Under the pieces are notes generated by a model that saw only the letters and a list, made by a program, of their open reading frames with translations, was not told the DNA's origin and did not search any database. A DNA stretch of 64,000 nucleotides from a phage. A program made the position numbers and the translations under genes. Where the stretch lies: sequence record NC_104726.1; one strand, given 5' to 3'. Positions 61,874 through 62,819 of the stretch are shown in pieces (position 1 is the first letter of the stretch; the number at the start of each line of letters is the position of its first letter).

Positions 61874-61919
61874 TTTAAAGGTTCCTTTTGTTTGTATATG
61901 TTTAAAGTATAACTGAAAG

Positions 61920-61996
61920 TGGTCTCCACGGAGTGATTCGAACACTCGACCTCCTGATCCCAAATCAGGCGCTCTACCAAGCTGAGCTACGCGGAG
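61920..61996 (-). tRNA. tRNA-Pro (anticodon TGG)
   Basis: Manual cloverleaf: acceptor CTCCGCG/CGTGGAG, anticodon loop TTTGGGA, T-loop TTCGAAT, encoded CCA. Confidence 0.75.
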
Positions 61997-62007
61997 TATT
62001 TACTATT

Positions 62008-62082
62008 TGGTGGCCCTGGGTGGAATTGAACCACCGTCTGGCGATTATGAGTCGCTTGCTTGAACCTTCCAGCTACAGGGCC
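62008..62082 (-). tRNA. tRNA-Met or Ile2 (anticodon CAT)
   Basis: Acceptor GGCCCTG/CAGGGCC, anticodon loop CTCATAA, T-arm GGTGG-TTCAATT-CCACC, CCA. Confidence 0.7.
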
Positions 62083-62083
62083 T

Positions 62084-62159
62084 TGGTGCTGATGGCAGGA
62101 CTTTAACCTACAACCTATTGATTACAAATCAATTGCACTACCGATTTTGCTACATCAGC
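62084..62159 (-). tRNA. tRNA-Thr (anticodon TGT), non-canonical T-loop
   Basis: Acceptor GCTGATG/CATCAGC, anticodon loop TTTGTAA, T-loop TTAAAGT (A where C56 is expected), CCA. Confidence 0.6.
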
Positions 62160-62164
62160 AAAAA

Positions 62165-62263
62165 GGTGCTAGGTGATGGAATCGAACCACCTATGTATTC
62201 AACGACTACCTCGTCTATTTTCAGGATTAAAAATCCTCGCCCTTGCCAAAGGGCTTACCTAGC
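62165..62263 (-). tRNA. atypical 99-nt tRNA-like gene (anticodon ambiguous)
   Basis: Perfect 7-bp acceptor GCTAGGT/ACCTAGC, D-stem GCCC/GGGC, T-arm GGTGG-TTCGATT-CCATC, but 47 nt between D and T arms and no encoded CCA. Confidence 0.4.
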
Positions 62264-62361
62264 TCAGTATGTTGACCATGTTGCTAGTCGGCGATGACGA
62301 CTGTAACATTTGATAATCCGGTTCTGCTTCCGACTTTCGCTTAATTACAAGGTCAACAATG

Positions 62362-62452
62362 TGGCGGAGAGTAATGGAATCGAACCATCATCGAGTCATC
62401 CTCAACGGGACGGTTTTCAAGACCGCTTGAGCACCATTGCTCCCTACCCTCC
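62362..62452 (-). tRNA. tRNA-Ser (anticodon TGA), long variable arm
   Basis: Acceptor GGAGGGT/ACTCTCC, anticodon loop CTTGAAA, T-loop TTCGATT, CCA. Confidence 0.7.
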
Positions 62453-62566
62453 TTTATAAATAATACTGATAATGACACTGATTTTCGAGCAGTTAGTGAC
62501 TAGTATAAACGACGATAAATATCAATGCCATTATCTGTATTATTTATGCATCTAAAAATATAAATT

Positions 62567-62653
62567 TGGTGGGGAGTGGTGGAGTCGAACCACCCGAGTC
62601 GCAATGACAATAGATTTACAGTCTACACCGCTACCTCTACGGGATAACTCCCC
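62567..62653 (-). tRNA. tRNA-Tyr (anticodon GTA), long variable arm
   Basis: Acceptor GGGGAGT/ACTCCCC, anticodon loop CTGTAAA, T-loop TTCGACT, CCA. Confidence 0.75.
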
Positions 62654-62657
62654 AATT

Positions 62658-62732
62658 TGGCACCCCGTACTGGACTCGAACCAGTGTCAACGGCTTAGAA
62701 GGCCGCTGCTTTATCCACTAAGCTAACAGGGC
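62658..62732 (-). tRNA. tRNA-Arg (anticodon TCT)
   Basis: Acceptor GCCCTGT/ACGGGGT (two G-U pairs), anticodon loop CTTCTAA, T-loop TTCGAGT, CCA. Confidence 0.7.
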
Positions 62733-62790
62733 ACTGGGTGGCTTTCTTTTACACCTTAGCCGCCAGAAAAGGTGGGAGACCATGTTTACA

Positions 62791-62819
62791 ATATTACACT
62801 GTTAAGCAAAGTTTGTCAA
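62791..62819 (-). promoter_or_regulatory. near-consensus sigma70-like promoter (TTGACA-N17-TAATAT) upstream of the tRNA cluster
   Basis: Minus-strand -35 at 62814-62819, -10 at 62791-62796, AT-rich upstream tract; about 60 nt upstream of tRNA-Arg. Confidence 0.55.

Follow-up and report, generated by a model that had tools for sequence, protein, structure and literature searches.

A conserved, inconsistently annotated tRNA-like RNA in the tRNA operons of Vequintavirinae phages

What is the 99-nt element that lies among the transfer RNA (tRNA) genes of the phage genome NC_104726.1 and has the body of a tRNA without the usual anticodon arm? We addressed this question in a 64,000-nt stretch of that genome (the window), in which the element occupies the minus strand of positions 62165-62263. 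The original prediction, made from the letters alone, had offered three possibilities: a tRNA with an insertion, an unusual class II tRNA, or a tRNA-derived regulatory RNA. From comparison of the element with its homologues, we conclude that it is a real, conserved tRNA-like non-coding RNA that has been annotated inconsistently. The third possibility, understood as a tRNA-derived RNA that is no ordinary decoder, fits best, and to that extent the prediction is supported. We think that the element is probably a functional RNA that takes no part in decoding.

The reverse complement of the window sequence can be drawn as a cloverleaf with five arms. Written by segment, the full RNA is GCUAGGU AA GCCC UUUGGCAA GGGC G AGGAU UUUUA AUCCU GAAAAUA GACGA GGUAG UCGUU GAAUACAUA GGUGG UUCGAUU CCAUC ACCUAGC A CC. 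The acceptor stem is, on the minus strand, the perfect 7-bp helix that had been claimed: its 5' strand, GCUAGGU (RNA positions 1-7, 62257-62263), pairs throughout with ACCUAGC (62168-62174). Read directly, this 3' strand continues into the discriminator A and CC (62165-62174 for the whole segment) and then U. The T arm (GGUGG UUCGAUU CCAUC, RNA positions 73-89, 62175-62191) is also as described, with a canonical T loop. The D arm (GCCC UUUGGCAA GGGC, RNA positions 10-25, 62239-62254) is present and carries G18 and G19, but it is not fully canonical as had been thought, because A8 and U14 stand in place of U8 and A14 and because an alternative drawing of the arm gives 6 bp (GCCCUU/AAGGGC) and a 4-nt loop (UGGC). 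The D and T arms are separated by exactly the predicted 47 nt (RNA positions 26-72). These contain, after G26, a hairpin in the place of the anticodon arm (AGGAU/AUCCU with loop UUUUA, RNA positions 27-41, 62223-62237), a 5' linker (GAAAAUA, RNA positions 42-48, 62216-62222), an extra-arm hairpin (GACGA GGUAG UCGUU, RNA positions 49-63, 62201-62215) and a 3' linker (GAAUACAUA, RNA positions 64-72, 62192-62200).

Folding of 62165-62263, which had been proposed as a check, gave this same five-arm cloverleaf as the minimum free energy (MFE) structure, at -34.2 kcal/mol (z=-3.7), and none of 200 shuffled sequences was equally stable. The Rfam tRNA model (RF00005) recognizes the element with 35.5 bits (gathering score 29, E=3e-5), compared with 60-71 bits for the neighboring tRNAs, and its alignment needs a 26-nt insertion in the variable region and a broken first pair in the anticodon stem. 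The Rfam score, the folding energy and the covariation among relatives (below) each indicate that the fold is more than chance.

Further evidence for the fold comes from the relatives of the element. Our homologue set comprises 24 distinct sequences from five genera of the Vequintavirinae (Vequintavirus, Avunavirus, Seunavirus, Mydovirus and Henunavirus). In a MAFFT alignment of 17 sequences, 99.5% of the cells in proposed pairs held standard pairs, and 10 pairs were changed on both sides. The observed covariation score was reached by 0 of 500 column shuffles, and sliding the 3' partners by 1-3 columns reduced pairing to 34-48%. The same five-arm cloverleaf was the MFE structure of all 17. The anticodon arm was misplaced in MAFFT alignment A2, and pairs in the set of 24 were therefore counted on explicitly parsed segments. 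Here, 549 of 552 stem cells are paired, and double-sided changes occur at 11 pairs: acceptor pairs 1, 3, 4 and 6; pairs 2, 3 and 4 of the four inner D-stem pairs (C:G to A:U or G:C); pairs 1, 4 and 5 of the anticodon-arm equivalent; and T-stem pair 3 (51:63, U:A to C:G). No acceptor pair is ever unpaired. The 6-bp form of the D stem with its 4-nt loop is predicted by MFE in all members; its extra pairs, U14-A21 and U15-A20, are invariant and hence give no covariation signal.

The contacts that would form the elbow of a tRNA are also kept. Pair 18:55 is G/U in all 24 sequences, and pair 19:56 is G:C in 16 and U:A in 8, with no mismatch. The switch of 19:56 from G:C to U:A implies that a tRNA-like, L-shaped fold is under selection, and we regard this covariation as strong evidence for the L shape.

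The element is at least as conserved across genera as the neighboring tRNA-Thr and tRNA-Arg. Identity between genera is 66-91% for the whole element and 77-92% for its core, compared with 60-74% for tRNA-Thr(UGU) and 62.5% for tRNA-Arg(UCU). A sensitive BLAST search with the element matched about 128 Vequintavirus and Avunavirus records, and searches from a divergent copy matched 181-187 records, reaching Seunavirus (PVP-SE1, SSE121, 4MG), Mydovirus (KB57, Mydo, KPP-1) and Henunavirus (Erwinia phages); the number of GenBank phage genomes with the gene is about 190. BLAST with the most divergent member gave matches in the Vequintavirinae only. Contigs with the invariant 3' motif AATACATAGGNGGTTNGATTCC numbered 12 in IMG/VR and 18 in metagenomes, those of full length measuring 135-150 kb. 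When 185,579 species of bacteria and archaea were searched through representative genomes, the motif was absent, and we found no host or prophage copy. A relaxed pattern for the 5' half, GGTANGNNNTTTGNCAANNNCG, matched 120 loci in IMG/VR and yielded no new relatives, since these were chance matches lacking a T arm, save one known Vequintavirinae contig. A covariance model built from 17 members (R1) found exactly one copy in the window (103 bits) and scored tRNA-Ser and tRNA-Tyr at 25 and 23 bits. Thus, the family appears, from these searches, to be confined to the Vequintavirinae.

The arm that should carry the anticodon is where the element departs from a tRNA. In all 24 homologues, G26 is followed by a hairpin with a 5-bp stem and a loop of 5 or 6 nt; none has the canonical 5 bp and 7 nt. 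The 5-nt loops are UUUUA (the window), UUAUA and AUCAA, and the 6-nt loops are CAUCCA, CUUCCA, CCUCCA, CAGCCA and CCUCAA, differing by genus. With eight different loops there is no conserved anticodon among the orthologues, and the anticodon geometry of an elongator tRNA (5 bp, a 7-nt loop, U33 and a purine at 37) is found in none of the 24. The pair that closes the loop is U:A in 9 sequences, C:G in 12 and C.A in 3, which is the pattern expected, on comparative grounds, of compensatory evolution through an intermediate. The 4-bp stem and loop UUUUUAA of the original prediction can be drawn by opening this pair (U31-A39) in the window, but the 5-bp stem with its 5-nt loop can be drawn equally well and is the form that the relatives back. 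The UUU anticodon read from the opened loop is not conserved: orthologues have UUAUA, AUCAA, CAUCCA, CAGCCA, CCUCAA and others, and the pair that would have to open covaries between U-A and C-G. When it is opened in Seunavirus and Mydovirus, the loops are 8 nt long. Judging from these comparisons, the hairpin is too short and too variable for normal reading of codons.

Programs that search for tRNAs do not resolve the element as a standard class II tRNA with a clear anticodon. The ARAGORN output for it is 'tRNA-???', with 'atcc' as a 4-base anticodon, and the program makes no call on the orthologues. Among six orthologues searched against Rfam, five had no tRNA-family match at E<=0.01 and the sixth, from an Erwinia phage (L011), matched only tRNA-Sec, below threshold; permissive thresholds brought nothing beyond tRNA or tRNA-Sec. 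That the element is a standard class II tRNA is contradicted by the impossible 4-base anticodon, by conserved linkers of 7 and 9 nt, and by the failure of ARAGORN and Rfam to call most orthologues.

The linkers are the most conserved part of the molecule. Downstream of the anticodon-arm equivalent, the order is always 5' linker, hairpin, 3' linker. The 5' linker is GAAAAUA or begins GAAAAAUA, and the 3' linker is (G/U)AAAUACAUA or GAAUACAUA; the G and AAAA of the former and AAUACAUA in the latter are invariant in 24/24, and no other invariant single-stranded block is as long as AAUACAUA. A tRNA with an insertion would account for the shape of the element, but not for the finding that the sequences flanking the supposed insertion are its best conserved.

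The hairpin between the linkers behaves in the opposite way. It is present in every homologue, with stems of 3-8 bp and loops of 5-18 nt that are unrelated in sequence and length; examples of stems are GACGA/UCGUU, UCCCCC/GGGGGA, GCUCUC/GAGAGU and GUAUGGUC/GGACAUAC. Within one clade, a compensatory change converts GACGA/UCGUU to GACGG/CCGUU. KB57 and KPP-1 have identical cores and unrelated extra-arm hairpins. The core of FENT2 is that of LNA4 and 4MG, yet the loop of its hairpin, AGAACUAACAGUAC, nearly matches the Erwinia-phage loop CGAACUAACAGUAC. This distribution of sequences suggests either modular exchange of the hairpin or free tolerance of any hairpin at this position.

In one type of extra arm, the two variable loops are complementary. 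The pseudo-anticodon loop and the extra-arm loop of the PVP-SE1, CspD17, SSE121, LNA4 and 4MG homologues (L007, L008, L009, L012 and L013, at about 630-690) can pair UCCA with UGGA, and 4MG has a joint change of both sides, to GCCA and UGGC. The complementarity is a hint that the two loops touch, in a contact that would be specific to this type, since the other types, including that of the window, have no such complementarity.

The setting of the element is a tRNA operon. ARAGORN and Rfam together give Arg(UCU), Tyr, Ser(UGA), the element, Thr(UGU), Met and Pro(UGG) on the minus strand of 61920-62732, and this cluster is 99.2-99.8% identical to that of the rV5-like coliphages of the genus Vequintavirus. 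A consensus scan found a sigma-70-like promoter upstream of the operon (TTGACA-17-TAATAT, 62791-62819, minus strand), which corresponds to P(tRNA) annotated in the rV5 RefSeq record. The element is probably transcribed from this predicted promoter, together with the phage tRNAs. The original prediction held that the element lacks an encoded CCA and that its neighbors have one; all six neighbors do (Arg, Tyr, Ser, Thr, Met and Pro), and the element itself has a partial one, A-CC followed by U. An encoded UCCA (U73-CCA) is present in 17 of the 24 homologues despite differing downstream sequence, and the Vequintavirus/Avunavirus clade has 3' tails of ACCU (the window), ACAU, UACA or CACA. By analogy with T4 tRNAs that have no encoded CCA, maturation in this clade would need trimming and CCA addition by the host.

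We postulate that the element is released from the transcript by the enzymes that process its neighbors, with RNase P making the 5' end, followed by 3' trimming and CCA repair. The product would have an L-shaped body composed of the 7-bp acceptor stem, the T and D arms and an elbow formed by 18:55 and 19:56. In place of the anticodon arm there would be a capped helix of 5 bp with a loop of 5-6 nt, making it unlikely that codons are decoded, and the invariant junction (GAAAA.. and AAUACAUA) would carry a hairpin that can be freely exchanged. Such an RNA would most likely act by tRNA mimicry, its top half, elbow and junction engaging a tRNA-binding protein of the host or the phage. Candidate partners include a processing or repair enzyme, an aminoacyl-tRNA synthetase, and a defense nuclease that targets tRNAs. 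The pseudo-anticodon loop and the extra arm might tune specificity, or they might merely be tolerated.

Several observations weigh against a functional RNA that does not decode. Opening the closing pair gives 7-nt loops that resemble anticodon loops in three genera (UUUUUAA in the window, UUUAUAA in Avunavirus, C/UAUCAAA in Henunavirus). These opened loops have U33 or A33, A37 and A38, and their 32/38 combinations, U.A and C.A, are common among real tRNAs. The discriminator is U where the loop contains UCC, GCC or UCA, and A with UUUUA; U73 with UCC or GCC recalls the identity of tRNA-Gly, and A73 with UUU that of tRNA-Lys. Records annotated with tRNAscan-SE give the element as Lys or as a suppressor. 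Finally, Escherichia phage V18 has lost the element by a deletion (L006:960-1047) that removed tRNA-Ser and both spacers, so that two-thirds of tRNA-Tyr, counted from its 5' end, now run into the final 47 nt of the element; the product is a chimeric gene whose acceptor stem cannot form. Because V18 has deleted it, the element must be accessory rather than essential. From the opened loops and the discriminator, some tRNA-like charging or recognition by a synthetase, and even aberrant decoding, might still take place.

A more specific proposal is that the RNA, as a non-decoding mimic, serves as a decoy or inhibitor of a host factor that binds tRNA (for example, an anticodon nuclease or another tRNA-targeting defense), or as a natural 'tRNA scaffold' lending stability to a small effector hairpin. 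The loop in the window imitates tRNA-Lys, the classic target of PrrC and PARIS. We hold this proposal tentatively and would not yet bet on it.

It is unlikely that the element is instead a working elongator, which in this phage would be a tRNA-Lys(UUU) whose anticodon stem has 4 bp, whose loop is UUUUUAA and whose extra arm is unusually long, and which might replace host tRNA-Lys cleaved by an anticodon nuclease. Several points are in favor of such a tRNA: the loop is one position off that of E. coli tRNA-Lys (CUUUUAA), U33, A37, A38 and discriminator A73 are in place, the Rfam tRNA score exceeds the gathering threshold, tRNA-Lys is the label used in tRNAscan-SE-annotated records, and ARAGORN finds no other tRNA-Lys in the phage. 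However, its anticodon stem would be one pair short, and the pair that has to be given up, U31-A39, is closed in the MFE structure and covaries with C-G in relatives. The triplets of the orthologues differ and their loops have 5-6 nt (8 if opened), so that decoding identity is not conserved. The 3' end lacks A76, close relatives ending in ACAU, UACA or CACA, and ARAGORN cannot assign an anticodon.

Could the gene be a decaying tRNA pseudogene, or a mere spacer or processing signal of the operon with no function as a mature RNA? The degenerate anticodon loop, the partial loss of CCA in the Vequintavirus/Avunavirus clade and the deletion in V18 of the element together with tRNA-Ser and tRNA-Tyr would fit such a history, as would the other odd tRNA-like genes that adjoin the element in relatives. 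In four genera the element also abuts a large stem-closed RNA (described below), and it could direct cuts by RNase P or RNase Z there. The RNA called mascRNA directs such cuts for MALAT1. Nevertheless, we consider both versions quite improbable. Identity between genera that matches or exceeds that of real tRNAs argues that the element is not a decaying pseudogene, as do stems kept paired through double changes, the maintenance of 19:56 and conservation at the level of tRNAs over five genera. A processing signal would leave the invariant 7- and 9-nt linkers and the retained extra hairpin unexplained, and each flanking tRNA already supplies an RNase P site.

There is very little chance that the element is a frameshift- or stop-suppressor tRNA. 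Three anticodons have been suggested by programs or records: a 4-base AUCC (ARAGORN's 'atcc'), an ochre UUA (tRNA-Stop(tta) in the record of JLBYU08), and an opal UCA in Henunavirus records. The label in pEp_SNUABM_01 is tRNA-TERM, and the Henunavirus homologue with loop CAUCAAA has tRNA-Sec as its best Rfam match. The 4-base model needs the stem AUUUU/AAAAU with an 8-nt loop, which can form only in the clade of the window and not in Seunavirus, Mydovirus or Henunavirus; relatives have UCCAU or GCCAU at this place, which cannot pair with AAAAU. The anticodon stem required for the 'tta' reading does not pair. The tRNA-Sec score, 37.6, is below the gathering score of 47, the acceptor and T stems have the lengths 7/5 and not 8/5, and A occupies position 33. 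We are aware of nothing that indicates recoding in these phages.

The remaining alternative, that the conservation acts on DNA or protein (a small open reading frame, a promoter or a recombination site), is just as improbable, since the short hypothetical proteins annotated over the element in some records do not survive the length differences among homologues (100, 107, 108, 109 and 110 nt), which break frames and rule out a conserved reading frame, since the substitutions are compensatory within helices, and since linker AAAAUA, partly like the late-promoter motif of rV5, TggTAaAAtA (PMC3606486), leaves only 6 of 10 positions matching.

The preferred reading, a tRNA-like RNA that does not decode, bears on how these genomes are annotated. 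In GenBank, the element is called tRNA-Lys, tRNA-OTHER, tRNA-Stop(tta), tRNA-???(atcc) or a hypothetical protein, or is given no label at all (rV5 RefSeq). The paper on the rV5 genome lists six tRNAs and does not mention the element (PMC3606486), and the BASEL paper called tRNAs with tRNAscan-SE and says nothing further on them (PMC8594841). Our literature search, which included the rV5, BASEL, Septuagintavirus and retron Eco2 papers, found no discussion of it; as far as we could find, the element is undescribed. Recognition of one family with a consensus structure would correct at least five contradictory labels, or none where one is due, and would end the counting of the element as a tRNA-Lys or a suppressor in studies of codon usage.

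The element is also of biological interest, in that a strongly constrained, tRNA-shaped molecule has no usable anticodon arm, and its junction is invariant around a hairpin that can be exchanged. Links are now emerging between phage tRNA clusters and the evasion of defense systems that cleave tRNAs. If our reading is true, a mimic that does not decode would add a new type of participant to that evasion. The rV5-like phages are readily manipulated on E. coli K-12, making the question directly testable.

The operons that contain the element have other structured regions. In Seunavirus, Mydovirus, Henunavirus and Avunavirus, a region of 165-190 nt begins 0-3 nt after the element and is closed by a terminal inverted repeat of 12-19 bp (L007:714-902, L013:715-903, L011:713-894, L015:715-879, L005:1100-1300). 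The sequence of the repeat differs between phages and its complementarity is kept; the MFE is -65.6 for L007 (z=-4.1), and z is -2.9 for L013. There are at least two sequence types, with no Rfam match. A motif of the L007 type, GAACCG(G)AUUAU..A..AAUG.UACAG, also occurs in the window, in the 98-nt gap on the 5' side of the element (62264-62361, minus strand). This gap has the closing stem GUUGACC/GGUCAAC, but its stability is not significant (z=-1.55). Based on these sequences, the stem-closed region may represent a second undescribed RNA family of these tRNA operons. The 114-nt spacer between tRNA-Ser and tRNA-Tyr (62453-62566, minus strand) forms a long, near-perfect, AT-rich hairpin (MFE -30.3 kcal/mol, z=-5.5) and is annotated as a 'repeat_region' in the record of phage isim; candidate roles are those of an RNase III site, a terminator or attenuator, and an element that acts as DNA.

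Unusual tRNA genes also occur near the element in relatives. The gene immediately 5' of it is non-canonical in Mydovirus (L015:528-602, L017:528-602), where ARAGORN reports 'tRNA-??? anticodon (ga)' and the loop has 6 nt (ACGAUA), and in PVP-SE1 (L007:527-602), where A33 and U37 occur in the loop AAGAUUC of the 'tRNA-Ile(GAU)'. L015:964-1042 and L017:991-1069 give a weak Rfam tRNA match (34.9 bits) and are not called by ARAGORN. About 1.5 kb downstream of the copy of the element in a metagenomic, Vequintavirinae-like contig of 151 kb (ERZ808232 NODE-18), ARAGORN predicts a tRNA whose anticodon is CUA ('tRNA-Pyl', resembling an amber suppressor; L159:7862-7934).

Two observations concern the records themselves. 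Eighteen GenBank records of the MG0656xx series, entered as 'Campylobacter phage' with C. jejuni or Campylobacter as host, match rV5-like coliphages with at least 99% identity across the tRNA cluster (61900-62760 of the window), which suggests that they are mislabelled or contaminant genomes. In the rV5 RefSeq record, the gene for the terminase large subunit beside the cluster is a three-piece join, ORF64ABC (L003:1-417, corresponding to about 60.9 kb and below in the window, just downstream of the spanin genes), and such a join implies intervening sequences in that gene.

How does the element compare with known RNAs? It is like an elongator tRNA (RF00005) in its 7-bp acceptor stem, its 5-bp T stem with the loop UUCGAUU, its D arm with G18/G19, its 19:56 pair, its place in a tRNA operon and, in most members, its encoded CCA. 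It is unlike one in the 5-bp, 5-6-nt anticodon arm, the lack of a conserved anticodon, A8/U14, and the failure of predictors to recognize most members. Thus, it has the cloverleaf, the elbow and, in the window, an Rfam score above the threshold for a tRNA, but it lacks the anticodon geometry and the conserved anticodon that define a decoder. Class II tRNAs (Leu, Ser and Tyr) have linkers of 0-2 nt, in contrast to the invariant 7 and 9 nt here, and the element has no Leu, Ser or Tyr anticodon. The similarity to tRNA-Sec (RF01852) includes a D arm that may have 6 bp and a loop of 4 nt (UGGC/UGUC), the long extra arm and the UCA-containing loops of Henunavirus, and tRNA-Sec is the best Rfam match of pEa_SNUABM_56 (best member score 37.6 bits, gathering 47). 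Nevertheless, tRNA-Sec has an 8/5 helix of 13 bp rather than 7/5, U rather than A at position 33, and a discriminator G rather than U or A, and most members, including that of the window (UUUUA), have no UCA. Two further candidates were rejected: transfer-messenger RNA (tmRNA), because ARAGORN made no tmRNA call and the sole Rfam match, to tmRNA_permuted at 17 bits, is located elsewhere; and a +1 frameshift suppressor with a 5-bp stem and an 8-nt loop, because the stem is not conserved beyond the clade of the window.

The mascRNA-type RNAs at the 3' ends of MALAT1 and MEN-beta offer an analogy, in that their cloverleaf, whose anticodon arm is reduced and does not decode, is recognized by RNase P and CCA-adding enzymes, and the element, in four genera, likewise lies directly beside a larger structured RNA. 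Recombinant tRNA scaffolds, in which a tRNA body bears an arbitrary hairpin, offer another. The former are eukaryotic and the latter artificial, and neither are homologous to the element.

The species 1 and species 2 RNAs of T4 (rnaC and rnaD) are closer in context, since they are stable RNAs, not tRNAs, within the tRNA cluster of a virulent coliphage, and rnaC has a tRNA-type T arm (CCGGGUUCGAAUCCCGG). To our knowledge, their function has never been explained. BLAST with the element found no similarity to either, with matches in the Vequintavirinae only, and the folds differ, rnaC being 139 nt long with an incomplete cloverleaf, unlike the element. The stability of the T4 RNAs has experimental evidence, whereas the element is known here from sequence alone. 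The T4 RNAs are not homologous to the element, but they are its nearest analogue in setting.

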